Numbered from the stretch's first letter, positions 15,448 through 61,187 are shown. The stretch is 64,000 nt of DNA from a virus (IMGVR_UViG_3300012920_000022:32001-96000); one strand, 5' to 3'. Notes: a model not told the origin generated them from the sequence alone. Translations and numbers: made by a program.

Positions 15448-15505
15448 ATATGACAATATGTCATATTGGATGAATTGGCACGATTTTTGTAATATTTTAT
15501 GTAAA
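15448..15505 (+). promoter_or_regulatory. composite promoter copy 1: TGACA-N3-TGTCA plus sigma54-like -24/-12 box
   Basis: ATATGACA-ATA-TGTCATAT then TGGCACGATTTTTGTAATATTTTATGTAAA (GG-N10-GT). Confidence 0.8.
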
Positions 15506-15516
15506 AGATTCTTATT

Positions 15517-15768
15517 ATGATCAAAATCACTTATTTGTCATACACATATGCCACCATAATGAAAAATGGTGATGATACTGTTATCACTGTTGACCGTAAA
15601 TTGATATCGGCAAATGATTGGCATATCATTAGATTTGCTTTGGGTGCATTATCGGATACCAGAAAGGTGTTGGATAATCTCATGATTGAGTATACAATAA
15701 AGTCATATAATAGTGACATAGAATATATTGGAAAAGTTGTTAAAAAATTATTTTATTGGGTCAAATGA
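15517..15768 (+). CDS. hypothetical protein
   Basis: First ORF after promoter copy 1. Confidence 0.65.
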   Translation: MIKITYLSYTYATIMKNGDDTVITVDRKLISANDWHIIRFALGALSDTRKVLDNLMIEYTIKSYNSDIEYIGKVVKKLFYWVK

Positions 15769-15983
15769 TAGATACTAACACTCCCATTCTACATGAGTTT
15801 GATAATAAATTTATTATCAAACTAAGTCTTGATAATTCATATCAAATAGCATTAGCCAATTCTATGTTTGATGGAATTTATGTTAATAAAGAATCCATTG
15901 AAGAACTTAATATATTTACTTATGAATTTAATAAAGCTGATATAGATATTTATCAATTGAGTAATCTAATTAAATATCTATAA
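15756..15983 (+). CDS. hypothetical protein
   Basis: Small ORF in operon; true start probably ATG 15765. Confidence 0.6.
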   Translation: MGQMIDTNTPILHEFDNKFIIKLSLDNSYQIALANSMFDGIYVNKESIEELNIFTYEFNKADIDIYQLSNLIKYL

Positions 15984-16027
15984 CTGAGAATTTTCACATA
16001 TTTTATAACTTAAAAACAAAGATACAT

Positions 16028-17020
16028 ATGCATAATCTAGATTTCAATTCCGAAAGAAACACCTATTCTTATATGGGTACACAAAAAGCTTGGCATGGTC
16101 TTGGACAAATAGTAACCGAAGCTAAGACTGCTCAAGAAGCACTGGTACTTTCCAACATGGATTTTGATGTAATAAAAGTCCCTGTTCCAGCTGGTGAAGT
16201 TGAAATAAATGGTGAGAAATTTATGGTTAAAGATCCCACTAAGAATTATGTTATTAGAACTGACACTGCCGAAGTTTTAGGTACTGTTGGTAGTACCTAT
16301 ACAGTACTCCAGAATCGGGATGCATTTAGTTTTTTTGATAATATTGTTGATAAAGATGAAGCAATATACGAAACTGCTGGTGTTATTAGAGGTGGGAGAC
16401 GTATCTGGATTGCTGCTAAGATGCCAAGCTACATAAAAGTTGGTAATGAAGATATTGAGCAATATGTAGTAATTACTAATGGTCATGATGGTAAATCTGG
16501 TTGTACTGCATTCTTAACCCAAGTAAGAATAGTCTGTGAAAATACTTTGAGATATGGTATTAGCAGTGCTATGAATAAAGTTAGTATACCCCACAGAAGT
16601 AAAATTGCTGAAAAAATTAAAATGGCTCATCAAGTTCTTGGCATGTCCAATAAGTACAATGAAGAGATATCCGATATTTGGAATGCCATGGCTAAAAAGC
16701 AGGTCACTGAGAAGATTACCATGGATTATTTGTTAAAATTATACCCCACTCATGAAGATTCTTCTATAGTTACGGTTACCGATAAATTTAGAGAAGATAT
16801 AATGGAATATATCAATTCGGATGCAACTGTTCAAACTAAAGAAACTAAACATACTGTGTGGGGACTTGTTCAGTCTATCAATGGTTGGTATCAACACAAG
16901 AAAAAATACAGACCTACCAGTAATTTCACCGTAGAGGATGTTAAACTTAACAGCATCTGGGATGGATCAACTCAGAAGAAAAATCAACAAGCATTTGATT
17001 TAGCATTAACATTAATATAG
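16028..17020 (+). CDS. DUF932 / phage-plasmid LGT_TIGR03299 family protein
   Basis: AWHGLG, YTVLQNRDAFSFFD, YETAGVIRGGRRIW, NGHDG, VRIVCENTL. Confidence 0.9.
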   Translation: MHNLDFNSERNTYSYMGTQKAWHGLGQIVTEAKTAQEALVLSNMDFDVIKVPVPAGEVEINGEKFMVKDPTKNYVIRTDTAEVLGTVGSTYTVLQNRDAFSFFDNIVDKDEAIYETAGVIRGGRRIWIAAKMPSYIKVGNEDIEQYVVITNGHDGKSGCTAFLTQVRIVCENTLRYGISSAMNKVSIPHRSKIAEKIKMAHQVLGMSNKYNEEISDIWNAMAKKQVTEKITMDYLLKLYPTHEDSSIVTVTDKFREDIMEYINSDATVQTKETKHTVWGLVQSINGWYQHKKKYRPTSNFTVEDVKLNSIWDGSTQKKNQQAFDLALTLI

Positions 17021-17028
17021 GATAATAC

Positions 17029-17544
17029 ATGGAAAAATATTTAATATCGTTTGATGTCTACGGGGAAGTAGACATCAAACGCCATACTAGAATTATATTT
17101 AGTAAAAGCTATAAACACGCATTGTTGCTTACTGAATATAAGGTTAAATCATTTTGTCTAGATGCCAATATTAGTATGGATCAGGTGGATGTTCATGAAC
17201 CTGAATTATATGAAAAATTTATTGAACATCAAGATCACAATACTGATTCTATGGATTTCATAGAATATGGTGATGTTGATAGGTCTGTATTTACTCACAT
17301 AGGTTCTATGAACCACATTGTTCAACTCAAGTATGATAATAAAACCAATAATGCATGTGTTGATCAATATCAGCCAAGAAGAAATACTGTTTGGTCTGGT
17401 GATATTGATATACCCAGAGATGAAATGTGTGAATTGTTGAAGGAAAATATAGAACGTATGAAGTTATATATAAATCTTCAATATGAGTTTATACTTGGTT
17501 ACATTGATGATATATATTATTGGGAATATGAAAACAGGGACTAA
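17029..17544 (+). CDS. hypothetical protein
   Basis: 171-aa ORF in operon. Confidence 0.7.
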   Translation: MEKYLISFDVYGEVDIKRHTRIIFSKSYKHALLLTEYKVKSFCLDANISMDQVDVHEPELYEKFIEHQDHNTDSMDFIEYGDVDRSVFTHIGSMNHIVQLKYDNKTNNACVDQYQPRRNTVWSGDIDIPRDEMCELLKENIERMKLYINLQYEFILGYIDDIYYWEYENRD

Positions 17545-17905: not shown

Positions 17906-17909
17906 TGCA

Positions 17910-18065: not shown

Positions 18066-18067
18066 TA

Positions 18068-18103: not shown

Positions 18104-18130
18104 GATATATAATAGAAAACGCAAAATCAT

Positions 18131-18916: not shown

Positions 18917-18929
18917 TATGGTAACTTAA

Positions 18930-18980: not shown

Positions 18981-18983
18981 ATT

Positions 18984-31260: not shown

Positions 31261-31318
31261 TATATGACAATCTGTCATATAATATCCATTGGTACGATTT
31301 TTGTAATATTTTATGTAA
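31261..31318 (+). promoter_or_regulatory. composite promoter copy 2
   Basis: TATATGACA-ATC-TGTCATATA then TGGTACGATTTTTGTAATATTTTATGTAA. Confidence 0.8.
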
Positions 31319-31333
31319 AAAACCATTATCGTA

Positions 31334-32125
31334 ATGAATAACATTATAAAGTTGCTACGCAGTGGCATAGATTGTAATATAAAATTGGCATTTACTTTTG
31401 CATCATCATTGAAGTATAATACTGATGTATCTGTGGAATTAAGAAAATTTCCATTATATTGTTTGGAATATGGTGTGGAAATGGGTTACATGATGGAGTT
31501 AAAAAGTTTATGGTTAGATGAATTAAGTTTAACTGAGTTACCAGAATCAATTGGTAATCTGAAAAAATTAACTAGATTGCATGTTAGTTATAACCACTTA
31601 ACTAAATTACCAGAATCAGTTGGTAATTTGAAAAATTTGGAATGGCTATATGTTAATAATAACCACTTAACTAAATTACCAGAATCAGTTGGTAATTTAG
31701 AATCGCTAACTAGATTGTATATTAATGGTAACCACTTAACTAAATTGCCAGAATCAGTTGGTAATTTGAAAAATTTGGAATGGCTATATGTTGGTTATAA
31801 TGATTTAAACGAATTACCAGAATCAATAGGCAATTTAAAAAATTTGGAATTATTATATGTTAGTCATAACCGATTAACTAAATTGCCAGAATCAGTTGGT
31901 AATTTGAAAAAACTAGTTGAATTGTATGTTAGTCATAACCGATTAACTAAATTGCCAGAATCAGTTGGTAATTTGAAAAAACTAGTTGAATTGTATGTCA
32001 ATGATAACCGATTAACTAAATTGCCAGAATCAGTTGGTAATTTGGAATCATTAATTGAATTATGTTTTAGCTATAACAATATAAATGATTTACCTGATTC
32101 GATAATCAAATTGGTTAGTAGTTAA
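31334..32125 (+). CDS. LRR protein (family member 2)
   Basis: Cap NIKLAF..LRKFPLYCLEYGVEM; 23-aa LTKLPESVGNLKNL repeats; near-identical 69-nt DNA units. Confidence 0.95.
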   Translation: MNNIIKLLRSGIDCNIKLAFTFASSLKYNTDVSVELRKFPLYCLEYGVEMGYMMELKSLWLDELSLTELPESIGNLKKLTRLHVSYNHLTKLPESVGNLKNLEWLYVNNNHLTKLPESVGNLESLTRLYINGNHLTKLPESVGNLKNLEWLYVGYNDLNELPESIGNLKNLELLYVSHNRLTKLPESVGNLKKLVELYVSHNRLTKLPESVGNLKKLVELYVNDNRLTKLPESVGNLESLIELCFSYNNINDLPDSIIKLVSS

Positions 32126-32212
32126 TTCTAGTAGATGATTTATATTTCTATAGCTAAATTAACTAACCACCATAAGTTAAGTATACTATAGAAAATAAAA
32201 AATAGCATAATC

Positions 32213-32482
32213 ATGGGTGTAAAATCTTGCCATAGAAATAATTGTATTAGTATAATGTGTGATACATACATAAGTGATGGTGATGTAGGATATGTGTGTA
32301 CCGATTGTAAACAAGAGTTTAAAGATTACATGAAAAACATTACCAATAAATTTGATAGCTCATTTGGTGAAATATTAGGTGAACTAAAAAAATTTATGGA
32401 AACTCCTGCTGGTACCTATGCTGCTGGAGAACCCATGGATGTTGATCGTTTTTTTGAAAATTTTGAAGACCATGAAAATTAA
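32213..32482 (+). CDS. small Cys-rich (putative Zn-binding) protein
   Basis: CHRNNC...MCD and VCTDC motifs. Confidence 0.65.
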   Translation: MGVKSCHRNNCISIMCDTYISDGDVGYVCTDCKQEFKDYMKNITNKFDSSFGEILGELKKFMETPAGTYAAGEPMDVDRFFENFEDHEN

Positions 32483-33761
32483 CAATATGGAGCTATATTT
32501 CAATGATTATTATAAAGACACAATTAATAAAATAGAAAACACTAATATAAACATGGTTATATTGGGTTATGCGGGTTCTGGAAAATCAACCCTGTTAAAC
32601 TATATTGTTAATAGATCAGCAAAATCTTATATTGTAGTTGCTCCCACTGGGGTTGCTGCTGTAAATGTTGATGGGGTCACCATGCACAGCCTATTTAAAT
32701 TCCCATTATCAGTTATATTAGCTAGTGGTGTCAAAGATTTAAAGGGTACTTCATCCGAAGAAGCCCTATTAAATTGTGATACTATAATCATAGATGAAAT
32801 TGGTATGGTAAGAGCAGATCTATTGGATGGTGTTGACATATCACTAAGAAAATTAACTAAAAATGACTCCCCATTTGGTGGTAAACAATTAGTAGCATTT
32901 GGTGATGTTAGTCAACTACCACCAGTTGTAACTGATGAAGAATCTGACATCATGGATATGATGTATAATAGCCCATATTTTTTTGATTCTAATTGTGCTT
33001 GGAATTATAAGTTTTCTTATAAATTGTTAAAACATAATTATAGACAATCCGATGATAAACTCTTTATGGAAATACTTAATAGGATGAGAACAGGTAAAAC
33101 CACTCATGAAGACATTATAACAATTAATGATAATTGTTATAAGTCAGTGGATATTGATGATAAGTTTATACCATATTTATGTTCTACCAACAGGCTTGCT
33201 AATTCTATAAATGATAAAAAATTATCAGAAGTTGACCAGCCTTGCTTTGTATATGAAGCATATATCGAAGGTAATTTCAATCCCAAGAGTTCACCAGCAC
33301 CTGAAATACTCATATTAAAAAAAGGTGCCAAAGTTATGCTACTCAATAATACTAGTAGTTGGTCCAATGGTACAATGGGTGTTATAAGCCATTTAGATTC
33401 AGATACCATATTTGTAGAAACTAATGATGGGGAATATGAAATTGGCAAATCTGAATGGAGTACCAGAAGCTATAGTTATGGTAGTGGTAGAGTATTTACT
33501 AGTATAGAAGGAACTATGAAACAATATCCCATAAAGTTGGCATATGCAAACACCATCCATAAATGTCAGGGTAAACAATTTGATAACATAATTTTGGATT
33601 TATCAAGTAGGTTATTTACACATGGTCATTTGTATGTTGCTCTATCCAGATGCACTACTATGAATGGTGTTTACTTAACTAGACCCATAAAGAAATCTGA
33701 TATAACTGTTGATAAAGTTATCATTAATTTTATGAAGGACGTATATAAAGGTAATATATAA
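32472..33761 (+). CDS. PIF1/RecD-like SF1B helicase
   Basis: GYAGSGKS, APTGVAA, IIDEIGM, PFGGKQL..FGD..QLPPV, QYPIKLAYANTIHKCQG, YVALSR; likely start MKINN at 32472. Confidence 0.92.
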   Translation: MKINNMELYFNDYYKDTINKIENTNINMVILGYAGSGKSTLLNYIVNRSAKSYIVVAPTGVAAVNVDGVTMHSLFKFPLSVILASGVKDLKGTSSEEALLNCDTIIIDEIGMVRADLLDGVDISLRKLTKNDSPFGGKQLVAFGDVSQLPPVVTDEESDIMDMMYNSPYFFDSNCAWNYKFSYKLLKHNYRQSDDKLFMEILNRMRTGKTTHEDIITINDNCYKSVDIDDKFIPYLCSTNRLANSINDKKLSEVDQPCFVYEAYIEGNFNPKSSPAPEILILKKGAKVMLLNNTSSWSNGTMGVISHLDSDTIFVETNDGEYEIGKSEWSTRSYSYGSGRVFTSIEGTMKQYPIKLAYANTIHKCQGKQFDNIILDLSSRLFTHGHLYVALSRCTTMNGVYLTRPIKKSDITVDKVIINFMKDVYKGNI

Positions 33762-33771
33762 AATAAAAAAC

Positions 33772-34209
33772 ATGTCAAAAATCGTAGTCAAAGAAGACAC
33801 TAATGAAGTTATTATAGATGGTGAATCCCATATTGTATCTCCCCTACCGTTTAAGTTGTTGGTGTTTTTTGTCAATAACAATGGTAAAACAATTTCCAGG
33901 AGTACAATTATAGATAACATATGGGATAATGGTGCTGTAACTAATAGATCCGTTGATGTAGCAGTGGGGAAACTACGAAAAATACATGAATCTATCAATG
34001 AATCTATCAAAACTGTTGTTAATAGAGGATATAATTTTTCTAATAACAGTATTACCATATTGAATCAAAAAAACGTTAAATCAAAAAAAATCAGATTCGA
34101 GAAGATTGCTGAATCTGAAAATGGTGATAAATACGCTGTTTATTATTCTGGTGATGTATTTATGGTTATGCCATTATTAGAATATGAAGGGAAGTATGGA
34201 AGTATGTGA
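33772..34209 (+). CDS. stand-alone OmpR/PhoB-type winged-helix DNA-binding protein
   Basis: FKLLVFF...GKTISRSTIIDNIW...NRSVDVAVGKLRK..IKTVVNRGY; no receiver domain. Confidence 0.85.
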   Translation: MSKIVVKEDTNEVIIDGESHIVSPLPFKLLVFFVNNNGKTISRSTIIDNIWDNGAVTNRSVDVAVGKLRKIHESINESIKTVVNRGYNFSNNSITILNQKNVKSKKIRFEKIAESENGDKYAVYYSGDVFMVMPLLEYEGKYGSM

Positions 34210-34254
34210 TTAGTGTGGGTGTGAAATATAATTTGGTATTTGATGTGGCTGTTA

Positions 34255-34935
34255 CTATTGGTGATAGCCACATTCGTGTTTTATTGTAGAATTTCCTATT
34301 AACATTTTAGGAAAATCCACCGGATTACATGTAACATCTAGTCTTCTGAGTTTTTCTAATTTTATTATAAATTTTGGTAATTCTATAATAAAATTACCAC
34401 TAGCATCTAATTCACATAAATTTTCTAGTTTACCCATTGATTCTGGTAATTCTGTAATAAAATTATCGTTGACATTTAATCCATGGAGATTAGTTAGATC
34501 ACCTATTGATTCTGGTAATATGGTAATATGGTTTTGTGAAACATATAACCATTCCAGATTTTTCAAATTACCAATTGATTCTGGTAATTTATTGATCTTA
34601 TTATCATATAAATTTAATATCTGTAAATTCTTTAGATCGCCAATTGATTCAGGTAATTCAGTTATAGTATTTCCACACACCCTGAAATATTTTAGATTAA
34701 TTAGATCACCTATTGATTCAGGTAAATATGTAATCGTGTTATTCTCTATGAAAATAGATTCAAGATTAATTATGTGATCCATTTCTACACCATATTCCAA
34801 ACAATACATTGGATATTTTCTAAGACTTTTAGCAATAAGACTATCATATGATATTGAGGTAGCCAAAGTAAATGCTAATTTAATGTTAGTTTCATTACCA
34901 CTATTCAATAATCTCAATATATTATCATTTTCCAT
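34255..34935 (-). CDS. LRR protein (family member 3)
   Basis: Cap NIKLAF..LRKYPMYCLEYGVEM; LPESIGDL repeats. Confidence 0.95.
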   Translation of the reverse strand: MENDNILRLLNSGNETNIKLAFTLATSISYDSLIAKSLRKYPMYCLEYGVEMDHIINLESIFIENNTITYLPESIGDLINLKYFRVCGNTITELPESIGDLKNLQILNLYDNKINKLPESIGNLKNLEWLYVSQNHITILPESIGDLTNLHGLNVNDNFITELPESMGKLENLCELDASGNFIIELPKFIIKLEKLRRLDVTCNPVDFPKMLIGNSTIKHECGYHQ

Positions 34936-34946
34936 GTTTAATGAAT

Positions 34947-36059
34947 TTATCTTGGGGAATTGTTTTTCATATCTAATATATCCAAATTTGGTAATTTATT
35001 AATTGATTCTGGTAATTTAGATAACCGATTTCCATTGAGATATAATCGTTCTAATTTAACCATATTGCCCATCATATCCGGTAGTTTTTCCAATAAATTA
35101 TAACTTAATCTAAATTCTTCCAATTTAATCATGTTATCTATAGAGTTTGGCAGTTTTTCTAACGAATTATTGGTAAAATCTAATGTTTTTAAATTTGTTA
35201 GATTACCAATTGAATCTGGTAATGATATTAACGAATTACACGAAACCCCCAATATTTGTAATCTTTTCAATTTACAAATAGATTTGGGTAATTTAATTAA
35301 TTCGTTATTACCTAGAAATAAATTAATTAAATTACCCAAATCACCTATTGAATCTGGTAATTTACTAATTATGTTATTGTATAATCCCAACCAATATAAA
35401 CTTTTCAATTTGCCAATATATATGGGGATACTTGTCAAATAATTATAATTCAAATTTAATTTTTTTAAATTTGATAATCCACATATTGGTTCTGGGAATT
35501 TACTAATTTCATTTGATTCTAGGTTTAATGTCTTTAACTTCTTTAATTTCTTCAATGATTCCGGTATTTCTGATATGCAATTATCATTGGCAATTATATG
35601 GTTTATGTCATTGAGTTCACATATTGATTCTGGAAATTCCGTGAATTTATTACATCCGATATTTAGTTTTGCTAATTTTGCTAGTTTCTTCAATGATTCT
35701 GGTATTTCTGATATGGAATTATCATTTATGATTAGTATTTTTAGATTACTGAGTTTACATATTGATTCTGGAAATTCCGTGAATTTATTATAACTTATAT
35801 CTAATTTCGTTAAATTCTGTAATTTCTCTATGGATTTTGGTAGTATGATGAGTTTATTTTTTGATAATACCAGACTTTTTAAATTCATCATATAATCCAT
35901 TTCCACATCATATTCCAAACAATATAGTGGAAATTCTCTTAGTTTTTGGGCAACATCATTACCATATGGTAATGATGTTGCCATGATGAATGCTAATTTG
36001 ACATTAGCGATATCATCAGTGTCTAATAATTGTAAAATGTTGTTTATCATTTTTATCAT
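34947..36059 (-). CDS. LRR protein (family member 4)
   Basis: Cap NVKLAF..LREFPLYCLEYDVEM; about 13 repeats with a duplicated two-repeat block. Confidence 0.95.
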   Translation of the reverse strand: MIKMINNILQLLDTDDIANVKLAFIMATSLPYGNDVAQKLREFPLYCLEYDVEMDYMMNLKSLVLSKNKLIILPKSIEKLQNLTKLDISYNKFTEFPESICKLSNLKILIINDNSISEIPESLKKLAKLAKLNIGCNKFTEFPESICELNDINHIIANDNCISEIPESLKKLKKLKTLNLESNEISKFPEPICGLSNLKKLNLNYNYLTSIPIYIGKLKSLYWLGLYNNIISKLPDSIGDLGNLINLFLGNNELIKLPKSICKLKRLQILGVSCNSLISLPDSIGNLTNLKTLDFTNNSLEKLPNSIDNMIKLEEFRLSYNLLEKLPDMMGNMVKLERLYLNGNRLSKLPESINKLPNLDILDMKNNSPR

Positions 36060-36081
36060 ATTATTGGTGTGATACCGAAAA

Positions 36082-36633: not shown

Positions 36634-36660
36634 AATTTTTAATTTATATTAATGAAGTGT

Positions 36661-36714
36661 TTACATAAAATATCACAAAACTATGCCATTGTATTAATAA
36701 TGACAAGGTGTCAT
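36661..36714 (-). promoter_or_regulatory. composite promoter copy 3 (one base short between GG and GT)
   Basis: Minus strand ATGACA-CCT-TGTCAT then TGGCATAGTTTTGTGATATTTTATGTAA. Confidence 0.65.
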
Positions 36715-39582: not shown

Positions 39583-39633
39583 CAGATTGTCATATAATAT
39601 CCATTGGTACGATTTTTGTAATATTTTATGTAA
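39576..39633 (+). promoter_or_regulatory. composite promoter copy 4
   Basis: TATATGACA-GAT-TGTCATATA then TGGTACGATTTTTGTAATATTTTATGTAA; identical to copy 2 except for an inverted 3-nt spacer. Confidence 0.8.
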
Positions 39634-39642
39634 AAATAGATT

Positions 39643-41125: not shown

Positions 41126-41126
41126 G

Positions 41127-41645
41127 ATGTCAACTATAATATACGATGCTTACAAATATGATGGTAATTTACAATCACTTATGGATGAATTACCCAGAGT
41201 AAGAATTGATTTCCACAAACACATAGAATCTAATCTTAAATCTTTATTTAATGATGAGATAATGGATGCAGATAATGCATATCAATCAGTTAAAAATATG
41301 GCAAAATCTGATATGAGATGGATTCAAGAATATGAAGATACATGTATACAAGTATATGTGTGTGAAGACATAATATACATACAATTATTTGGAATGATAA
41401 AAAGCATACACATACATGATGATTTAATAAAGAAATTATATGATTTTTCCTTTGATGACAGATGTATGGATGATAGTGAAAAAGATTGGTGGAAGAGTAG
41501 AGAAAAAATCTGGGGGAAAATATTTCATAAATCACCGATACCATTATATGCTGGACTATCATATAGTATCGGTGATTCCAATATTATGTTACTTGACACA
41601 ATAAGGAAAATAAGAGGTGAAAAGCCAATATATGGATACGGATAA
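41127..41645 (+). CDS. hypothetical protein
   Basis: 172-aa ORF inside an LRR cassette. Confidence 0.7.
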   Translation: MSTIIYDAYKYDGNLQSLMDELPRVRIDFHKHIESNLKSLFNDEIMDADNAYQSVKNMAKSDMRWIQEYEDTCIQVYVCEDIIYIQLFGMIKSIHIHDDLIKKLYDFSFDDRCMDDSEKDWWKSREKIWGKIFHKSPIPLYAGLSYSIGDSNIMLLDTIRKIRGEKPIYGYG

Positions 41646-42714
41646 TAAAATATTACAATTATTAAGCAGTGATGATGATGCCAATATTAAATTAGCATTT
41701 AGCATTGTTAAACCATTACAGTATGGGGATTCTGTGGCTGTAAAGTTAAGAGAGTTTCCATATTATTGTTTGGAGCATGATCTGGAGATGGATTTTATGG
41801 TTGAATTATGTAAATTAACCATAAAACATGTAAAATTCAATAAATTACCAGAATCTATTGGTAAATTGACTAAATTGACTAAATTGACTATTGAGGATAC
41901 TGGGATATCAAAACTACCAGAATCTATTGGTAAACTAATTAATCTTAAAACGCTGTCTATTATTGGTCATACCATAACCAAACTACCAGATGCCATAGGT
42001 GATTTGACCAATTTAAGATGGTTAAATATTGAGAGAGGTACATTATCAGAACTACCAGATGCCATAGGTAATCTGGAAAATTTGGATATATTATCTATTG
42101 TTAAAAATAATTTGAATTCATTACCAGAATCTATTGGTAAACTCAATATGTTGACTATGTTGACTATTAAGTATACTGGGGTATCAAAACTACCGGAATC
42201 CATAAGCAATCTGGTAAACTTAAAGCAATTAACCATTGTGGATAGTATGTTATTAAGTTTACCAGATTGCATAGCTAAATTAGTAAACCTAGACACATTA
42301 TCTATTCCTGGTAATTTTATTACTAAATTACCAAAATCAATAGGTAATCTAAATAAACTCACCAGGGTTGATATTAGTGGAAATCAGTTAGTGGAACTAC
42401 CAGAATCAATAGGTAATTTGATAAACTTAATTTCATTGTATTTACATGACAATACCATAGCTAGATTACCAGAATCTATTGTAAAATTACGACAATTGTT
42501 GTGTTTAGATTTATCAAATAATAACTTATTTGATTTACCCAAAGAATTTACCAGTATGGTTGGTTTACAAGAATTATCTTTATTTAATAATCAACTTATG
42601 GATCTCCCACCAACCATATCAAATATGGTTGGTTTAACAACTATAAATGTACGTAGTAATAATTTTAATAAAATACCCGTATTTTATCATACTCCCATAA
42701 CTATTTTAACATGA
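41632..42714 (+). CDS. LRR protein (family member 6)
   Basis: Cap NIKLAF..LREFPYYCLEHDLEM; about 13 repeats; likely ATG start at 41632. Confidence 0.95.
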   Translation: MDTDNKILQLLSSDDDANIKLAFSIVKPLQYGDSVAVKLREFPYYCLEHDLEMDFMVELCKLTIKHVKFNKLPESIGKLTKLTKLTIEDTGISKLPESIGKLINLKTLSIIGHTITKLPDAIGDLTNLRWLNIERGTLSELPDAIGNLENLDILSIVKNNLNSLPESIGKLNMLTMLTIKYTGVSKLPESISNLVNLKQLTIVDSMLLSLPDCIAKLVNLDTLSIPGNFITKLPKSIGNLNKLTRVDISGNQLVELPESIGNLINLISLYLHDNTIARLPESIVKLRQLLCLDLSNNNLFDLPKEFTSMVGLQELSLFNNQLMDLPPTISNMVGLTTINVRSNNFNKIPVFYHTPITILT

Positions 42715-43568
42715 TGGATGATAATATATTAATATTATTAGATGGTGATGATATTAATATTAGATTAGCTTTTACCATGGTTAAATCATTGAATTATGAT
42801 GAAGTTGTTTCCGATAGATTAAGAGAATTCCCGTTATATTGTTTGGAATATGGTGTGGAAATGGATTATATGATCAATTTAAAGAGTTTAAAAATTGATC
42901 ATATGGGGATTGATAAATTACCAGATTCTATCGGGGAATTAAAAAATCTTATATCTCTGGATATAAGTCACAACCATCTCATGTACCTACCAAATAGTAT
43001 TGGGGAATTAAAAAATCTTGAACAATTATGGTTAAATAATAATTTTTTAGTTGAATTACCTGAATCGATCAAGAATCTATGTAAACTCAACATGTTGAGT
43101 TTACATGATAATGAATTTAACCATTTTCCCGAATCAATATGCAAATTACAAAATATTCAGTGGATAGATTGTGAAAATAATCTAATATATGAATTACCAG
43201 ATTCTATCGGGGAATTAAAGAATTTGAGAGAACTAAGTTTTAATCATAATTATATTAGCAAGTTGCCAGATTCTATCGGGGAATTAAAGAATCTAAGATC
43301 TTTGGATGTTGGTTTTAATAAAATGATTGAATTGCCTGATACTATAGGAGGATTATGTAAACTATTTAGATTATCTGTTTGTGATAACTATATATCTGAA
43401 TTACCAAAATCCATATCAAAACTAAAACATATTAGTTCCATAGATATAAATGATAATCCTATCGTTCACATTCCAGAATTTATATATGAATTAGAAAGCT
43501 TAAATTATTTACATCATAATGATATAACCATCAATTTAAAAACTTCCGAAACATGGAAAATAAGGTAA
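42711..43568 (+). CDS. LRR protein (family member 7)
   Basis: Cap NIRLAF..LREFPLYCLEYGVEM; LPDSIGELKNL repeats. Confidence 0.95.
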   Translation: MMDDNILILLDGDDINIRLAFTMVKSLNYDEVVSDRLREFPLYCLEYGVEMDYMINLKSLKIDHMGIDKLPDSIGELKNLISLDISHNHLMYLPNSIGELKNLEQLWLNNNFLVELPESIKNLCKLNMLSLHDNEFNHFPESICKLQNIQWIDCENNLIYELPDSIGELKNLRELSFNHNYISKLPDSIGELKNLRSLDVGFNKMIELPDTIGGLCKLFRLSVCDNYISELPKSISKLKHISSIDINDNPIVHIPEFIYELESLNYLHHNDITINLKTSETWKIR

Positions 43569-44644
43569 TTAGTTTAATAAATAGTGATGATATTACTAAT
43601 ATAGATTTAGCATTTACACTAATTAAATCTATATATGCAAATGATAGTTATAGTGAAACAATATTATCTGAAATCAAATCATATCCTACATATTGTTTAA
43701 AATATGGTATAGCATTATCTTATATTAATAGATTGGATATATCCAATCTTGATGAATTTAATCTATTAATCTATCATATATCTGAATTAACATCACTATA
43801 TTATTTAAATATATATGATATAAATTTAAATGAATTACCCTCTGAAATTGGTGATCTAATAGAATTGCGTAGGTTGGATTTGAATAATAACAACCTACGC
43901 ACATTACCTGATTCTATTGGGAATTTACATAATCTATGCTGGTTATCCATAAACTATAATAGATTAGATATTTTCCCAGATTGCATTACTAAGTTATATA
44001 ATTTAAGATCATTGTTTATAACTGGTAATGGATTGTATGAATTACCAGAATCAATAGGCAAACTGAAGAATTTATCCAGTTTACATGCTGGTAACAATTA
44101 TTTTATTTCAGGCTTACCAGAATCAATAGGAGAATTAAAGAAATTACGTAATATTAGCTTTGTGAATAGTAGGCTTAACACATTACCTGATTCCATAGGT
44201 GAATTGGAAAACTTACAGACTGCTAATTTATTCTATAATCTTATCCCTAGAGTACCAGAATCAATAGGAGAATTAAAGAAATTACAAGAACTGAATCTTA
44301 ACAATAATGAAATTAGTGAATTACCAGAATCAATAGGTAAATTGATAAATCTAGAATTATTATATCTTAATTCAAATGAGCTACAAGATATACCATCATG
44401 TGTTATTGAATTAAAAAATTTAAAAGAATTACACATTGATAATAATTATTTGTATGTAATTCCTGAATCAATGGGTGAATTAACTAATTTACAAGAGTTA
44501 AGTTTGGCTAAAAACGAGCTACAGGATCTCCCATCATCAATCAATCAACTAATGAAATTAAGAGAATTGAATATATCTGAAAATTATATTGATGATTTAC
44601 CGTGGTATCTATATGACATGAATGATCTTATAGTTATTAGATGA
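43553..44644 (+). CDS. LRR protein (family member 8)
   Basis: Cap NIDLAF..SYPTYCLKYGI; LPESIG repeats. Confidence 0.95.
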   Translation: MENKVISLINSDDITNIDLAFTLIKSIYANDSYSETILSEIKSYPTYCLKYGIALSYINRLDISNLDEFNLLIYHISELTSLYYLNIYDINLNELPSEIGDLIELRRLDLNNNNLRTLPDSIGNLHNLCWLSINYNRLDIFPDCITKLYNLRSLFITGNGLYELPESIGKLKNLSSLHAGNNYFISGLPESIGELKKLRNISFVNSRLNTLPDSIGELENLQTANLFYNLIPRVPESIGELKKLQELNLNNNEISELPESIGKLINLELLYLNSNELQDIPSCVIELKNLKELHIDNNYLYVIPESMGELTNLQELSLAKNELQDLPSSINQLMKLRELNISENYIDDLPWYLYDMNDLIVIR

Positions 44645-54510: not shown

Positions 54511-54566
54511 ACTGACATACTGTCAGTTTGTGTAATTTGGCACGATTTTTGTAATATTTTATGTAA
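54511..54566 (+). promoter_or_regulatory. composite promoter copy 5
   Basis: ACTGACA-TAC-TGTCAGT then TGGCACGATTTTTGTAATATTTTATGTAA. Confidence 0.8.
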
Positions 54567-54596
54567 AGATTTTTTAACTTATAAATTATTAATATC

Positions 54597-55211
54597 ATGA
54601 AATCATTGAAACGTATAGATCCATTGAATTTAGTTCACGTATTAGATGTAATTGATGTAAATCCAGAAGAAATAAAGCATGAGATATCTAATGCTCATGT
54701 CATTTATCATGGTAATTTCATGAAACAACTACATGGATATGATTGTAAATCTTTGGTTGCTGTAAATGATGAGGGTGAATTTTACATAGTATTAGATAAT
54801 GACGGTTATCAAACCATTAAAATGTCTGATAAACAAATTGAGTTACTAAGACAGGAAATAAAAAGACCATTTAGCTCCAGCGATTATAATATACATATTG
54901 TATTGTGGAATGAGATTGATTATTCCAGCGTGGGTGATATATCATCCTTCTATGATGAATGTGATGAACCAGCAAAAGAATGGTTGAAATGGGCAAATGC
55001 CAATTATTATTGTGAAAAATGTATAGCTGGTGAAACAACCATATTCATAGAATATCACAGAAGCAAACGACCTACCGAAGAAAATGATTGGAGTGAGGGT
55101 AAGGTGAGAATGAAGGTAACCAATCTTGATAATGGTAATTTTGCCATTGGTAAAATAAATGATGAATCAACTGATATAGTTAAAATCATATCAGAAGCAA
55201 TCAATAGCTAA
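54597..55211 (+). CDS. hypothetical protein, paralogue family B
   Basis: IDPLNL, IYHGNFM, KVTNLDNG shared with 61212, 61996 and 62748. Confidence 0.8.
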   Translation: MKSLKRIDPLNLVHVLDVIDVNPEEIKHEISNAHVIYHGNFMKQLHGYDCKSLVAVNDEGEFYIVLDNDGYQTIKMSDKQIELLRQEIKRPFSSSDYNIHIVLWNEIDYSSVGDISSFYDECDEPAKEWLKWANANYYCEKCIAGETTIFIEYHRSKRPTEENDWSEGKVRMKVTNLDNGNFAIGKINDESTDIVKIISEAINS

Positions 55212-55237
55212 TTATTTTAAAAATATCAGTTAATCTA

Positions 55238-55269
55238 TAGAGATTGCATCTATTATGGTGTAATCTCTA
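55238..55269 (+). terminator. RNA hairpin (terminator or processing/stability element)
   Basis: tagagattgcatc-tattat-ggtgtaatctcta; the two mismatches are G-U pairs on the plus strand. Confidence 0.5.
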
Positions 55270-55292
55270 CATATATATTAAATATTACATAT

Positions 55293-55973
55293 ATGAAAAA
55301 CGAAGAAATATTGAAAATATTGAAACATATAAATGATCCAATTTCCCTCGATAGTCTTTTTGCGACTATTAAAAAAGATCGCATTAAATATAATGGTGAA
55401 GTTGCTAAAATTATTAAGGAAAAATTTATATTTTACTGTATAAAATATAAATTAGAAATTAAACACTTGAAAAAGATTACTGAACTGAATCTATCAGATA
55501 CTATTGGTGATCATTTTGAATTACCACCATCAATAGATGTTATGGTTAATTTAAAGAAGTTGGTTATAAATAATACCAGGATAGTGAGTTTACCAGAATC
55601 GATGTGTAAATTGAAAAAATTAGAAAGATTATCTTTAAACCGCAACCAAATTATAAATTTACCAAATTCCATTGGTAAATTGAAAAATCTGGAGAGACTA
55701 TCATTAAATGACAACCAAATTATAAGTTTACCAAATTCCATTGGTAAACTAAAAAAATTAAAGTACTTGTCTTTGCGTAATAATAGATTATCAAAATTGC
55801 CATCCACTATCAATAAATTAACTAATTTAATGGTAATGTATCTAGATAATAATGAATTGGAAGAATTGCCATTTGAGGACATTGGACTTACAGAACTAAC
55901 ACTTAATGGTAATATCATCGACACCAGCAGAGAAATTAAATGGATCTATGGTTGGGAAAAACCATGGATATGA
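55293..55973 (+). CDS. LRR protein (family member 9, cap subtype 2)
   Basis: INDPISLDSLFATIK..FYCIKYKLE cap; LPNSIGKLK repeats. Confidence 0.95.
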   Translation: MKNEEILKILKHINDPISLDSLFATIKKDRIKYNGEVAKIIKEKFIFYCIKYKLEIKHLKKITELNLSDTIGDHFELPPSIDVMVNLKKLVINNTRIVSLPESMCKLKKLERLSLNRNQIINLPNSIGKLKNLERLSLNDNQIISLPNSIGKLKKLKYLSLRNNRLSKLPSTINKLTNLMVMYLDNNELEELPFEDIGLTELTLNGNIIDTSREIKWIYGWEKPWI

Positions 55974-56024
55974 TCTGTTTTAATTTCTAGTAACCCAATT
56001 ATATACCAATAAATTTATGATATT

Positions 56025-56682
56025 ATGACAAGTAAAGAAATAGTAGATATACTAACTACCATAAATGATCCCATTATTATTGATAGTCTTTTTGCGACTA
56101 TTAAATATAAAAATATTAAATATAATGGTAAGGTCAGAAATATGATTAGAAAACATTTCATATACTATTGTATTAAATATGAACTAGAGGTTAAATATCT
56201 GAGAAAAATTACTATTTTAAACCTATCAGGTAGTATAGGTTTACATCATGAATTGCCTTCACCCATAGATGTTATGGTTAATCTAGAAAAGTTAGTTATA
56301 CAAAATACAAAGATGGTTACCTTACCAGAATCAATTGGTAATCTTAAAAGATTAAAATCACTATGTCTAAATAATAATAGGCTGGTTACCTTACCAGAAT
56401 CAATTGGTAATCTTAAAAGACTGAACTTTTTATATTTGAATAATAATCAACTTACAGAATTACCAAATACGATTGGTAAGCTAAAAATATATGAGCTATA
56501 TTTGAATAATAATCAACTTACAGAATTGCCAAATACCATCAGTAATTTAACCAATTTTAAATGTATTACATTTGAACAACAATCAGCTCATAGATTTACC
56601 ATCAACTGATAATATGGAGTGGTTGGTTGAATTACTGCTAGATAATAATATAATGGATAATAGTAGACAATTTAAATTATGA
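56025..56682 (+). pseudogene. LRR protein (member 10) with a +1 frameshift near the 3' end
   Basis: ORF ends at 56609, but removing one T from TTTT (56555-56558) restores NLNVLHLNNNQLIDLP...DNSRQFKL* at 56682, collinear with paralogue 55293. Confidence 0.75.
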
Positions 56683-56733
56683 TGACTATTTTCTAGTATT
56701 ATCCGATAGAATAATACTAAACATTTTTGATAC

Positions 56734-57291
56734 ATGACTGAAAAATTACATGATCTATTAGTTGCTGATGATATTAAATATGTACATTTAGCATTTGTCA
56801 TGATTAAAGGAAATCCACATCTTATAACAAAAGATATTATACCATATTTGAAAATATATCCATGGATGTGTCTAGAATATGGTATATTGATGGAGGACTA
56901 TAAAAAGGAATCTTCTATATATTTAACTAATTCAAATAATAGTTGTTTACCCGATAGATTATTTGATCTTACAAACATAACTGAACTATATTTATATCAT
57001 AATCAGATTAGTGAATTACCAAAATCATTGTTGAAATTACATAAATTACATAAATTATCATTGAGTGGTAATTTAATATATGATCTACCAAATTGGATAA
57101 TCGATCTAAAATATCTTAAAGTATTAGATATATCCAATAATCCTCTCCCAGATATTCCACAAGTTTTATTTAATAACCATAATTTAACAGAAATTATTTT
57201 ACCTAAAGGTTTGAGATACAGTTTCCATGTACATGTTATTGACAAACCATCAATTAGAACAAAATTAGAACAAATTTTTAAATTTACTTAA
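56734..57291 (+). CDS. LRR protein (family member 11, short subtype)
   Basis: VHLAF..YPWMCLEYGI cap, about 4 repeats, 185 aa. Confidence 0.92.
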   Translation: MTEKLHDLLVADDIKYVHLAFVMIKGNPHLITKDIIPYLKIYPWMCLEYGILMEDYKKESSIYLTNSNNSCLPDRLFDLTNITELYLYHNQISELPKSLLKLHKLHKLSLSGNLIYDLPNWIIDLKYLKVLDISNNPLPDIPQVLFNNHNLTEIILPKGLRYSFHVHVIDKPSIRTKLEQIFKFT

Positions 57292-57292
57292 T

Positions 57293-57850
57293 ATGAAGGA
57301 AGAACACAATATATTATCACTGATAAAATCTGGTATAGAATCAAATATTAGATTGGCTTTTACATTAATTAAAAATGTTGGTATTATTTCGGAAGATATA
57401 GTGTCATATGTGAGAAATTATCCATGGTTGTGTTTAGAATATGACGTAGAAATTAATCATTTAATGAAACAATCCAGCCTATATTTGGTGAATACTGACA
57501 ACACATGTGTACCTGATGGTCTAAGTTCATTAGTAAATTTGAAAGAAATAAATTTGTTTGATAATAAAATAACAGAATTACCAGAATTTATAATGAAACT
57601 AATCAATCTATCAACCATTAATGTTTCAAATAATTGTCTAAATAAAATACCCGAATGGATAGTAAAACTCCCAAATTTAAGAAATTTGGACATATACTGT
57701 AATCCCTTATATGATATGCCACTATTTCTATTACATGACAATAATATAAGTAATATAACTATGTCATTTGATTGTAAATATCATTTCTATCCATATGCGC
57801 ATGATAATCCACATATAAAACATAATCTAAAGAAATTCAACTTTTTCTAA
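57293..57850 (+). CDS. LRR protein (family member 12, short subtype)
   Basis: NIRLAF..YPWLCLEYDVE cap, 185 aa. Confidence 0.92.
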   Translation: MKEEHNILSLIKSGIESNIRLAFTLIKNVGIISEDIVSYVRNYPWLCLEYDVEINHLMKQSSLYLVNTDNTCVPDGLSSLVNLKEINLFDNKITELPEFIMKLINLSTINVSNNCLNKIPEWIVKLPNLRNLDIYCNPLYDMPLFLLHDNNISNITMSFDCKYHFYPYAHDNPHIKHNLKKFNFF

Positions 57851-58407
57851 TGGAAGATTTTACTGATAAACTACTGGAATTATTAAAATCCGATGATGAA
57901 TCTAATGTAAAAACTGCTCTTAATATAATGCAAGGTGATATACCATGTGATATACAAAGATTATCACCATATTTGAATCATTATCCGGATCTTTGCTTAG
58001 ATTATAGTATAACGGATTGGATGTTAAATCGTAAAGAAATATTCATAGTAAACACCAAACTTGAAAAATTACATCAAAATATAGGTAAGTTAATAAATCT
58101 TAAAAGACTGTATTTATACAATAATAATTTATAAGAATTACCAAATGAATTATCCGAACTAGTAAATCTTGAGAGATTAGATTTACATGGTAATAAATTA
58201 ACTCATCTATCAGGATGGATTATGAATATGCCTAATTTGAAATACCTGGATATAAGTGAAAACCCATTATTAGATGTGCCAACTGCGATATTTAGGGATC
58301 ATAAACTAAAGGAAGTTATATTACCACTTAGATTAAAAATAAGTTTTGGTATCCATGCATACAGACACGGTAAATTTAAATCAAAAACGCTATATAGATT
58401 TTTGTAA
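57850..58407 (+). pseudogene. LRR protein (member 13) interrupted by an in-frame TAA
   Basis: YNNNL*ELPNELSELVNLERLDLHGN; TAA at 58132-58134; reading through gives 185 codons like both neighbours. Confidence 0.85.
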
Positions 58408-58713
58408 TTTTATTATTCTATCAATTATATGTTTTTCCACCATCCTATCATTATCCCATAGTTCACTAGATATGCAACAATATGTCCCACAATTTGTTAA
58501 ATTATATTTACCGGATCTTATCAACTTTATCAAGTCATGATGGGTTTTTATAAATTCATCATCCGATGGATTATTAATAAATTTATTATGAAATGCTTGG
58601 ATTTTTTGATTTTCTTTATTGATAAATAGCATGGATTCATAATTAAACCAAAATTTTTGGTTTAATTCATCTCCACATTTATCATCTGGTGTGTAATCTT
58701 CCCATATATTCAT
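58390..58713 (-). CDS. hypothetical protein
   Basis: 107-aa ORF in operon. Confidence 0.65.
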   Translation of the reverse strand: MNIWEDYTPDDKCGDELNQKFWFNYESMLFINKENQKIQAFHNKFINNPSDDEFIKTHHDLIKLIRSGKYNLTNCGTYCCISSELWDNDRMVEKHIIDRIIKLQKSI

Positions 58714-59159
58714 ATTAGACTAATTATTTCATGAAAATCGTTTTTATTGTAATATTTGTGAAAACTGTTTTCCCTGTTTTTTCTATCTATACATAAAAAT
58801 TCAATATCCCCATCATCATCAATAATAATATTTTTACTATGGGTATTATTATTAAAATATATCAATATTTCACCATCACCCGTTCTTGATATGGTAAAGT
58901 CGATTTTGTTATTGTTAAATAATAAAACAAATTTGTTATTTAACAATAACAAAATCGACTTATTTTTGAAATCTAATAGTGAATAAATTTTAAAGACTTC
59001 TGCCGATTTATTTAATGCAAAATTTACCACGCAGTTGTTAAAATTTTGATAATATGATAACTCATTCATCATTATGGTTATTGACATCATGCGCCTGATA
59101 TTGTCTATTTGAGTAACCATATCAATGTATGCAACTAAACATATTATTAATATTATCAT
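58710..59159 (-). CDS. hypothetical protein with hydrophobic N-terminus
   Basis: 149 aa; ATGA overlaps on both sides. Confidence 0.65.
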   Translation of the reverse strand: MIILIICLVAYIDMVTQIDNIRRMMSITIMMNELSYYQNFNNCVVNFALNKSAEVFKIYSLLDFKNKSILLLLNNKFVLLFNNNKIDFTISRTGDGEILIYFNNNTHSKNIIIDDDGDIEFLCIDRKNRENSFHKYYNKNDFHEIISLI

Positions 59160-59440
59160 ATTTTAGACTCTTTATCAAAATTAAAATATGATTCACGACC
59201 TCTTCTAGAAACACCAAATTTAGGGAATCTAACATCTTTTATACCCATCATATCCAAATATACATATGGGTTATGCCAACTGATATTTTTGCCAACTGAT
59301 AATTGATTATGGACATTGGCTGGTATTTTTGCCCTAATCATAATATATTCATCATTGGTTTTCATTAAAAATTTTACTACATCTTCTTTTACAGTTTCTT
59401 CGCTGATTTTACACCAATTTACTATGACACCTGATATCAT
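59156..59440 (-). CDS. hypothetical protein
   Basis: 94-aa ORF. Confidence 0.65.
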   Translation of the reverse strand: MISGVIVNWCKISEETVKEDVVKFLMKTNDEYIMIRAKIPANVHNQLSVGKNISWHNPYVYLDMMGIKDVRFPKFGVSRRGRESYFNFDKESKI

Positions 59441-59480
59441 TGTTTTCTAAAAAATTTTTAATTTTTACTATTCTTTTTAT

Positions 59481-61109
59481 TTATTCTTCCAATATCCATT
59501 CTCCCATAACTATTTTATTATGGGAATCACCAGTAGTATGTTTTAATATAAAAAACTTTCTACTATTTAATGATTTTAATTCTCTATAATATTCAGATTC
59601 AATTGAGAATACTAATTCTCCCTGGGATTTATTAGATGTTATATCCAAATATTCATTTATATGAATGAATGAATTGTCATTCTTTATGAATGACAATCTA
59701 AATATTCCATCTAATAAATCTATGGGGGTAAGTGAATCACCTTCTTTATTATATAGATTAAATTTTAATATATTATCAAATGGGTTTATGGATATGGATA
59801 ATTCTGATTGAGAAATAATGTTGTTGGAGTCATCATTACCATAACTAACATACACATCATTGTTTGATATGAATCTTATTATGTTTTTTGTTTTAACTAG
59901 TACTTGCCCACTATTTGATATAGATATGTTATCATTTGATACTATCTTATTAACAATGTTTAATGGTCTATTGTTAGTTCCGATATTTAATCTAAGTCTG
60001 GTTTTACCATATTTAGATACATCAAATGATGATAAAAATGACGATTTATTTATTGAGGTTCCATCTGCCCTGTTATATAATCTTAATGTATATTCTATGG
60101 AAAATGATACTGCAATAGCAGCATTTTTTACTATGGGTATCCATTCATTGGGTAAATCAAAATTATCATCTTGATTTACTGTCATATCAAAGGTTTTTAT
60201 AAAATTACCACCCAATTGTTCTAGTAAAGTTATTTCGTGTATTATATAATATGAATTTCCTGCCAATGAATTTAATGAAAATATGTAATCTTCAATAGAT
60301 CCACCATCCCATTGACCAAAATATCTAAAATAGTCCCCGTCTTCGGCTTCTTCTATAACAGCAGTCAATAAATCGAATTCATCTTTAGACTTTATGGAGA
60401 ACCTAAAGTTATTACCTATTATCAGATTCGCATACCCATTAACATAATCTACTGAATTTATTTCTTTAAATTCATAATATAAATTAACTTGATCTACTAA
60501 TCCCACACCATTAGTTATTATATGGGAAAAAGTATTGGGATTACCTATATTTGCCTGTTGGTTATCAAGTGACCATGCAAAACTTGGTATGATATATTCT
60601 ACATATTTATCAAATACAATGCCTGATATAAATATGGGTTTTGGATTAAAGTATATTAATTCATTATCTATATTTATATATGCATTTTCCAGTATTTTAA
60701 TTTTATTATTATTTTTCATTCTCCAATATATGGTGGATATAAATCCAGATATATTTGGAAAATTGTATCCGGATATCATGTGTATTCTTAATACATCATA
60801 TTTGATATTTAGATTTATTGGGAAAGTTATATCATTCACCGATACATTATCATCAAATAATTCATAGGGATATGCATTATCTTCATCTAATAATATAAAT
60901 TTATTAGATAATAAATCTACCGCAGTTTTGTCTTTTGTATTTTTAGTTTTTAATTTGGCGTTTTCTTTATTGATAATTATATCCGCATTATCATATTCGT
61001 TGGTTACTCGTTGAAACCCATAGGTGGAGGTATCAAATGATATATCATTTGATTTATACATGTATTCTGCTAAAAAATATTCATTAATGCGGAAAAATAT
61101 GGAAGCCAT
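59481..61109 (-). CDS. putative virion structural protein
   Basis: 542 aa, beta-rich; GATATATAAT box upstream (61121-61130, minus). Confidence 0.6.
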   Translation of the reverse strand: MASIFFRINEYFLAEYMYKSNDISFDTSTYGFQRVTNEYDNADIIINKENAKLKTKNTKDKTAVDLLSNKFILLDEDNAYPYELFDDNVSVNDITFPINLNIKYDVLRIHMISGYNFPNISGFISTIYWRMKNNNKIKILENAYINIDNELIYFNPKPIFISGIVFDKYVEYIIPSFAWSLDNQQANIGNPNTFSHIITNGVGLVDQVNLYYEFKEINSVDYVNGYANLIIGNNFRFSIKSKDEFDLLTAVIEEAEDGDYFRYFGQWDGGSIEDYIFSLNSLAGNSYYIIHEITLLEQLGGNFIKTFDMTVNQDDNFDLPNEWIPIVKNAAIAVSFSIEYTLRLYNRADGTSINKSSFLSSFDVSKYGKTRLRLNIGTNNRPLNIVNKIVSNDNISISNSGQVLVKTKNIIRFISNNDVYVSYGNDDSNNIISQSELSISINPFDNILKFNLYNKEGDSLTPIDLLDGIFRLSFIKNDNSFIHINEYLDITSNKSQGELVFSIESEYYRELKSLNSRKFFILKHTTGDSHNKIVMGEWILEE

Positions 61110-61130
61110 ATGATTTTTAGATTATATATC

Positions 61131-61187
61131 ATATGACAATATGATATATTACATTACATGGCACGATTTTTGTAATATTTAGTGTAA
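61131..61187 (+). promoter_or_regulatory. composite promoter copy 6 (degenerate right palindrome arm)
   Basis: ATATGACA-ATA-TGATATAT then TGGCACGATTTTTGTAATATTTAGTGTAA. Confidence 0.75.

Follow-up and report, generated by a model that had tools for sequence, protein, structure and literature searches.

A sigma-54-like promoter module resembling those of Bacteroidota chaperone genes recurs in a marine T4-like phage contig

In Escherichia coli the psp promoter serves a stress regulon read by sigma-54, whose sensor-less activator PspF (AAA+ plus a helix-turn-helix, HTH) is probably kept in check by a partner protein and binds sites ~80-130 nt upstream with looping assisted by IHF. Phage T4 relies on the host polymerase and host-type promoters for its pre-late genes and on a separate phage sigma factor later, using sigma-70 plus MotA/AsiA. 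To our knowledge, little is known of how phages of Bacteroidota (dominant in oceans and guts) take over transcription. Here we analyze a stretch of 64,000 nucleotides (the window; bases 32001-96000 of the 135,755-bp viral contig IMGVR_UViG_3300012920_000022, completeness estimate 55%; positions are counted from the first base of the window unless given as genome positions) in which a short promoter-like module recurs, comprising the palindrome TGACA-N3-TGTCA, then 12 nt, then TGG(C/T)AC-N5-TTG. Six copies lie in the window and nine in the whole contig. Judged by sequence, each copy is probably a complete Bacteroidota heat-shock promoter, multiplied by the phage and read by host sigma-54 together with a host regulator. 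The likeness to psp would be that of a sigma-54-read stress regulon with a sensor-less activator, the difference being operator distance, with the phage site centred 20 nt from the GG. As in T4, host-type promoters would serve a T4-like phage, here with promoters of the -24/-12 class.

The nearest described promoters are those of motif SM4 from transcription start mapping in Flavobacterium psychrophilum (Guerin et al. 2021, PMC9723704). SM4 is described there as 'typical -24/-12 elements of sigma54', is kept apart from the sigma-A motifs SM1-3, and heads groES-groEL, lon, dnaK, grpE-dnaJ, htpG, skp, clpB and remFG-sprCDBF; mutation of conserved SM4 and SM5 nucleotides is reported to have confirmed that both elements contribute to transcription of remFG-sprCDBF. 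For Flavobacteriia, Bacteroidia and Cytophagia, a second study describes predicted sigma-54 promoters as enriched at GroEL/ES, DnaK/J, GrpE, IbpA and HSP90 genes (PMC12316311). The 61-nt strings of Table S2 in PMC9723704 span -50 to +11, as calibrated on a sigma-A row with TAnnTTTG at -12 to -5, and in groS, dnaK, htpG, clpB, grpE and others they place the GG at -26/-25, with the G of TTG falling at -14 and the start 14 nt past it. A TGTCA-like arm occupies a fixed place in the strings of groS (TGTCA), htpG (TGTCA, 13 nt to TGG), clpB (TGTCC) and grpE (TGACA), is ambiguous in dnaK and lon, and is absent from skp, remF, THC0290_1827 and THC0290_1426. Because the arm is found in the first four and not in the last four, the palindrome marks the chaperone subset of sigma-54 promoters. 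The remF core in the same table, TGGCACGATTTTAGT, almost equals the phage core. The terms 'palindrom' and 'inverted repeat' are absent from the main text of PMC9723704, whose SI appendix may treat upstream elements, and a literature search found no paper on phage use of the promoter or on the palindrome.

The phage copies share with the tabulated SM4 promoters TGGYAY-N5-TTG, a TGTCA-type arm 12-13 nt before TGG, short leaders and a variable base after TTG. The SM4 promoters are chromosomal and serve chaperone and protease genes, whereas the phage copies precede leucine-rich-repeat (LRR), unknown, replication and sigma-like genes, have a near-invariant AT-rich stretch from -13 to +3, and number nine in 136 kb. 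An earlier note on this DNA had placed the module in the -24/-12 sigma-54 class, and that placement agrees with the F. psychrophilum promoters of the same class, whose starts fit the geometry and which their authors assigned to sigma-54 (PMC9723704). Host promoters of this class have been described in print. The novelty is that a phage has captured, multiplied and rewired such a promoter, and that it is so widespread in phage contigs.

Architecture and conservation of the copies

The earlier note had described six copies of an operator with a -24/-12-like core in the window, five with N10 and one with N9 spacing. All are present as described, although the starts it gave lie 2-4 nt upstream of the palindromes proper. 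A 22-mer core, TGGYACGATTTTTGTAATATTT, occurs in five exact copies at 15476, 31290, 39605, 54538 and 61159, all on the plus strand; 0.02 copies are expected in shuffled sequence, and five were reached in 0 of 100 shuffles. The sixth window copy, on the minus strand with TGG at 36688, reads TGGCATAG-TTTTGTGATATTTTATGTAAA, a 1-nt deletion giving GG-N9-GT. The copies beyond the window lie at genome positions 31942(-), 96270(-) and 101204(+); the first, 58 nt before the window start, reads TGGTATGGTCTTTGC and is the most host-like (TTGC). In the contig, TGGYAY-N5-TTG is observed 19 times, whereas 200 block shuffles give 3.2 +/- 1.7.

The gap from TGTCA to TGG is exactly 12 nt in all nine copies, and the inverted repeat is exact in eight, the exception being the copy at 61134-46, TGACAATATGATA, with the degenerate right arm that the earlier note had pointed out. 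The palindrome centre lies 20 nt 5' of the first G in all six window copies, again as claimed there. The -24 element is TGGCAC, TGGTAC, TGGCAT or TGGTAT in nine of nine, and GG-N10-G spacing holds in eight (N9 at 36688(-)). The -12 element reads TTGT in seven copies and TTGC in the one at genome 31942; in the N9 copy it is a displaced TTTTGT.

Among the eight N10 copies, mean pairwise identity is 0.90 over the 30-nt core and 0.63 from palindrome to TGG, and falls in the 60-nt flanks to 0.34 upstream and 0.42 downstream; the module has been kept intact while its flanks drifted, which indicates that it is maintained. When starts are predicted by homology to the mapped F. psychrophilum promoters, they fall on the first A of GTAAA, and every copy faces a same-strand open reading frame (ORF) at 11-32 nt from that point, the predicted length of the 5' untranslated region. 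The copies could in principle be passive remnants of recent cassette duplication, or recombination hot spots, with no present regulatory role, and the average 90% identity of the eight cores, the 5' leader gattttttaacttataaattattaatatcATG common to copies c5-c8 and the paralogous families behind the copies fit such an origin. That explanation is nevertheless very improbable, given background-level flanks around an intact module, the same-strand ORF at a like distance from every predicted start, retention of the core in a related contig with an 11-nt spacer, and retained positions that are exactly those conserved in host promoters.

The module in Bacteroidota genomes and in other phage contigs

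A scan of TGACANNNTGTCA-N12-TGGYAY-N5-TTG over one genome per bacterial or archaeal species gave at least 120 loci. Among the listed loci, 78 of 80 displayed titles belong to what we take to be Bacteroidota (Flavobacteriaceae, Bacteroidales, Cyclobacteriaceae, Rikenellaceae and similar), the others being one Alteromonas and one Selenomonadaceae metagenome-assembled genome. The first ATG-ORF was taken per locus, leaving aside 40 short-flank loci (L275-L314), the truncated ORFs at L232 and L252, and three ORF-less loci. Among the matches listed, the first downstream ORF at 77 long-flank loci encodes HSP70 in 54, HSP90 in 13, Cpn10 in six, Lon in one and other proteins in three, so that dnaK, htpG, groES or lon comes first in 74 of 77. 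These downstream genes identify the module as the chaperone-gene (heat-shock) promoter of the phylum Bacteroidota. The earlier note had supposed mimicry of a host chaperone regulon and proposed a genome scan, and the identical architecture upstream of dnaK, htpG, groES and lon in Bacteroidota bears this out. Three Flavobacteriaceae genomes each hold 2-4 sites within two mismatches, one of which heads grpE-dnaJ. At the 120 host sites listed, TTG is followed by A 80 times, by T 26 times, by C 11 times and by G three times; the T in place of C at -12, which had been taken for an oddity of the phage, is thus normal in the host family, in which A is commonest among these matches.

In the viral_contigs set, a scan with the palindrome, a 12-nt spacer, TGGYAY and a loose -12 element gave 67 loci, nearly all TGGYAY-N5-TTG(T/G), and at least 119 loci carry A or C after TTG (104 A and 15 C). 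With the spacer free at 7-17 nt, 98 distinct phage sites divide into 61 with N12, 17 with N13, eight with N11 and 12 scattered, and this peak at N12 indicates that the fixed distance is a property of the family. The first downstream ORFs at 80 sampled loci of other phages reduce to 69 distinct proteins, of which 54 are chaperones (HSP20 42, HSP70 10, Cpn10 2), the rest being nine UVR-motif proteins, two of the sigma-70 family and four of no family. The UVR proteins have 141-152 aa and two UvrB/UvrC (UVR) motifs; the sigma-70-family proteins have 264 aa with regions 2 and 4. Three near-complete (98-100%) huge-phage records each have only one or two copies. Exact-core scans of viral_contigs and metagenome_contigs found one related contig, identical in both sets; in the related 46.6-kb contig the same core, with its 11-nt spacer, lies behind an LRR-like gene. 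Phage-borne chaperone genes in IMG/VR contigs are a second close comparison, alike in architecture, N12 spacing and TTGTAATAT-type sequence after -12. Those contigs have one or two copies before HSP20, HSP70 or Cpn10 genes, whereas in the present phage the promoter, no longer tied to chaperone genes, has been multiplied. Since the module precedes chaperone genes in the IMG/VR contigs, gene and promoter were plausibly acquired together there.

Only TGACA/TGTCA, TGGYAY and TTG are conserved across the wider family, and these positions point to the GG-N10-G geometry of sigma-54 and not to the -33/-7 geometry of the Bacteroidota primary sigma factor. The comparison bears on the proposal that the module is instead a sigma-A promoter of Bacteroidota type (-33 TTG, -7 TAnnTTTG) with an overlapping operator: GATTTTTG fits TAnnTTTG at seven of eight positions and TAGTTTTG in the N9 copy at all of them, TGTCA has its TG 20-21 nt upstream, and a variable spacer would bear the 1-nt deletion. 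TAnnTTTG is not kept across the wider family, however, and the F. psychrophilum strings place mapped starts 14 nt and not 5 nt after TTG, with SM4 separate from SM1-3 (PMC9723704), so that a sigma-A promoter is hardly to be expected here. A scan for sigma-70-type sites was uninformative, with 171 found against 185 expected. The sigma-A -7 box TAnnTTTG is rare, lying upstream of 6 of 67 ORFs (gaps of at least 40 nt), three of the six inside module copies.

Candidate readers and a proposed mechanism

Searches of the contig (~55% complete) returned no Sigma54_DBD or Sigma54_activat match above threshold, and the sole PF00158 match, of 15 bits, lies inside the Dda-like helicase; with neither a sigma-54 nor an activator gene in the contig, host factors are implied. 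Sigma54_DBD occurs in 201 of 201 sampled Bacteroidota genomes, and its co-occurrence with the module is therefore uninformative. Three Flavobacteriaceae genomes have 3-5 PF00158 genes each, and in three such genomes a gene for a bacterial enhancer-binding protein (bEBP; PF00158) precedes groES by 3-4.5 kb on the same strand. In one annotated case the protein (428 aa) combines an AAA+ domain starting at residue 13 with an AAA lid and, at its C terminus, an HTH_8 domain; the gene order is bEBP-LptE-x-SecG-GroES. We infer that this groES-linked bEBP may be the binder of the palindrome. Separately, a Maribacter locus has a 387-aa response-regulator-type sigma-54 activator without a DNA-binding domain ~6.5 kb downstream of the grpE-dnaJ promoter, and in three Flavobacteriaceae genera a PF00158 gene lies 6.5-7 kb from the matching module; the HTH-less response-regulator bEBP near grpE-dnaJ was set aside as a regulator, being a probable chance neighbour.

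In the proposed mechanism, host RNA polymerase with sigma-54 would bind the TGGYAC-N5-TTG core and a host dimeric regulator would bind the palindrome, the best candidate being the AAA+ activator encoded beside groES, which is sensor-less and has a Fis-type HTH at its C terminus. Adjacent to polymerase, the activator would drive open-complex formation without long-range looping, and transcription would begin at the first A of GTAAA. Phage genes would fire when the host proteostasis response is on, as expected in infection, and independently of the primary sigma factor. The phage has multiplied the module ahead of a sigma-like gene outside the window and, within it, of the LRR cassettes, the family-B genes and the DUF932 block; the LRR and accessory genes are probably switched on via the host stress-response machinery. 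The architecture of the module, its agreement with host chaperone promoters and its restriction to one phylum are observed directly; activity in the phage, RpoN dependence, the binder of the palindrome and the timing are extrapolated from the likeness to host promoters.

The module might instead be read by a phage-encoded factor, its likeness to sigma-54 being incidental. Candidates are a sigma-like ORF at genome 30981-31889(-) (L003:12981-13889), the winged-helix ORF inside the block behind copy c2, and some product of the half of the genome that is missing. The sigma-like ORF (302 aa) matches the sigma-factor PHROG phrog_1740 (E 1.4e-7) and, weakly, Sigma70_r2; a homologue search returned only the ORF itself, and a search of solved structures returned nothing. 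The winged-helix ORF (145 aa) has an OmpR/PhoB-type Trans_reg_C domain (E 4e-14) without a receiver domain. An identical phage-specific stretch, TAATATTTTATGTAAA, outside the host consensus, and the ~55% completeness of the contig also speak for such a factor. The MotA, AsiA and gp55 families were not detected in the contig, about half of the genome being missing. Against a phage reader, host chaperone genes with no phage context are preceded by an identical palindrome, spacing and core, as are chaperone genes in many unrelated phage contigs, and sigma-70-family factors read -35/-10 type elements and not a GG-N10-G pair. The sigma-like gene, moreover, is itself headed by the most host-like copy (TTGC), as would suit a target better than a reader. 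A phage reader is thus quite improbable.

Several points weigh against reading of the module by host sigma-54 and an activator at the palindrome. Enhancer-binding proteins usually bind elsewhere than 20 nt from the GG; since enhancer sites normally lie much farther from the core, the palindrome could be a repressor site instead. Barrios and colleagues reportedly gave, in 1999, a sigma-54 consensus with GC at -12 within TTGC; this canonical GC occurs in one of nine phage copies, the others having GT, and the host family mostly has GA. Since the base after TTG is mostly T in the phage and mostly A in the hosts, the class is not textbook TTGC. The N9 spacing of copy c3 is expected to cripple a sigma-54 promoter, and this copy may be weak or dead. 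The 16 nt 3' of TTG are near-identical in eight copies and outside the host consensus, a sign that a further determinant, perhaps peculiar to the phage, may be present; this AT-rich stretch (-13 to +3), which is confined to the phage lineage, could be a melting aid or a second signal. Assignment of the class to sigma-54 draws on start mapping and motif work in one species, and with ~45% of the genome missing a phage-encoded factor could lie there.

A wider reading, which we put forward tentatively and regard as rather unlikely, is that the host heat-shock circuit becomes an infection-timed, sigma-A-independent channel for the phage, with a cascade from sigma-54 to a phage sigma factor and with palindromes acting as a sink for the regulator. 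Nine or more promoters per genome would become active once the making of phage proteins sets off the host proteostasis alarm, and one copy would switch on the phage sigma factor. The replicated palindromes, including the promoter-less one at 63578, would soak up the host heat-shock regulator and re-tune chaperone supply for the phage.

Genes behind the copies and the phage that carries them

Clustering by BLAST gives 14 LRR-family ORFs in the window, of which 13 lie downstream of a same-strand copy and one (11731-12429) is not behind any copy. The earlier note had counted 12 of 13; its trend holds, the count does not, and two short ORFs make up the gap. It was right that all four family-B genes are headed by copies (at 54538 and 61159), as is the DUF932 operon (at 15476), but its description of the targets as accessory genes is too narrow, as the blocks also hold genes for a Dda-like helicase, a winged-helix protein and a tail fibre, together with the sigma-like gene. 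Contig-wide, the LRR family comprises 18 short leucine-rich-repeat proteins, of which the window encodes 14 (11731-58407); for a phage, so large a paralogous family is unusual. The genes headed by the copies are LRR, family-B, DUF932, unknown and sigma-like genes, and not chaperone or protease genes; HSP20, HSP70, HSP90, Cpn10 and Lon had no Pfam match among 164 ORFs scanned in the contig, which is ~55% complete. A terminator-like hairpin at 34242-34274 closes the c2 block, and a perfect long hairpin, ATATATCCCCAACTATAA...TTATAGTTGGGGATATAT, lies at 63600-63640, after the lone palindrome. The features are listed below.

Table 1. Module copies, the genes behind them and other features (window positions unless stated; aa, amino acids)
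Feature	Position	Strand	Details
Copy c1	15451..15505	+	palindrome 15451-15463, 12-nt spacer, core TGGCACGATTTTTGTAATATTTTATGTAAA 15476-15505; predicted start ~15503
Block after c1	15517..17544	+	ORFs of 83 aa and 72 aa, DUF932 (16028-17020), 171-aa ORF
Genes beyond c1 block	to 23913	+	amidase, SSB-like, primase, helicase
Copy c2	31265..31319	+	TGGTAC variant; exact palindrome 31265-77; predicted start ~31317
Block after c2	31334..34209	+	LRR 31334-32125, Dda/PIF1-like helicase 32418-33761, winged-helix ORF 33772-34209
Copy c3	36660..36713	-	exact palindrome 36701-36713; TGG 36688; GG-N9-GT by 1-nt deletion; predicted start ~36662
Block after c3	34255..36633	-	183-aa ORF (36082-36633), LRR genes 34947-36059 and 34255-34935
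Copy c4	39580..39634	+	TGGTAC variant; exact palindrome 39580-92; predicted start ~39632
Block after c4	39643..44644	+	LRR 39643-40500, 41632-42714, 42711-43568, 43553-44644; two unknown ORFs
Same-strand genes beyond c4 block	to 51813	+	1550-aa ORF, tail-collar fibre
Copy c5	54513..54567	+	exact palindrome 54513-25; predicted start ~54565
Block after c5	54597..58407	+	family-B 54597-55211, then six LRR-family ORFs (55293-58407)
Copy c6	61134..61188	+	right arm degenerate; core end ...ATATTTAGTGTAAA; predicted start ~61186
Block after c6	61212..63371	+	family-B 61212-61952, 61996-62739, 62748-63371
Lone exact palindrome TGACATTTTGTCA	63578..63590		no TGG-N..-TTG core on either side
Copy c7	TGG at 64270	-	just outside the window; heads ORF 63651..64000
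ORF off window end	63651..64000	-	behind copy c7
UVR loci, other phage contigs	L320, L345, L349, L352, L364, L378, L381, L388, L394		
Sigma-70-family loci, other phage contigs	L330, L350		
PurZ-like / lyase / MazG-like / guanylate kinase set	368-1615; L004:10925-12157, L006:9460-9996, L006:9986-10513	-	first in the window
Split family-B DNA polymerase ORFs	L004:2490-3944; L006:6541-7719	+; -	

The contig is that of a T4-like myovirus, as identified by Pfam and PHROGs matches to a T4-type portal, a Gp23-type capsid protein and a prohead protease, to a split family-B DNA polymerase, a UvsX-like RecA, a Dda-like helicase and clamp-loader-like AAA proteins, and to ribonucleotide reductase. The capsid protein is nearest that of Flavobacterium phage MaF61 (37% identity), with remoter matches in Tenacibaculum, Chryseobacterium and Prevotella Lak phages and in Sphingomonas phage PAU, and a search of sequencing runs found the contig in three marine DNA metagenomes and in no RNA run; on these grounds the host is likely a marine member of the Bacteroidota. 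DNA similarity to deposited phages amounts to a single 71-nt match, the GC content of the window is 25-33%, and scans of the window for Rfam families and tRNAs found none. A PurZ-like adenylosuccinate synthetase (phrog_1211, E 9.5e-38) co-occurs in the contig with an adenylosuccinate lyase, a MazG-like pyrophosphohydrolase and a guanylate kinase, a set suggestive of a 2-aminoadenine (Z-base) genome, and the family-B DNA polymerase is divided between two ORFs ~35 kb apart on opposite strands, one with the exonuclease and N-terminal part and the other with the C-terminal part.

Chaperone genes stand under host promoter logic in hundreds of phage contigs, which links the auxiliary chaperones of phages with the stress response of their hosts. 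The present locus suggests a route round the primary sigma factor, by way of a borrowed sigma-54 heat-shock promoter and its operator. The compact 60-nt element is a candidate stress-responsive phage promoter, and may also help to probe for the phylum's heat-shock regulator.

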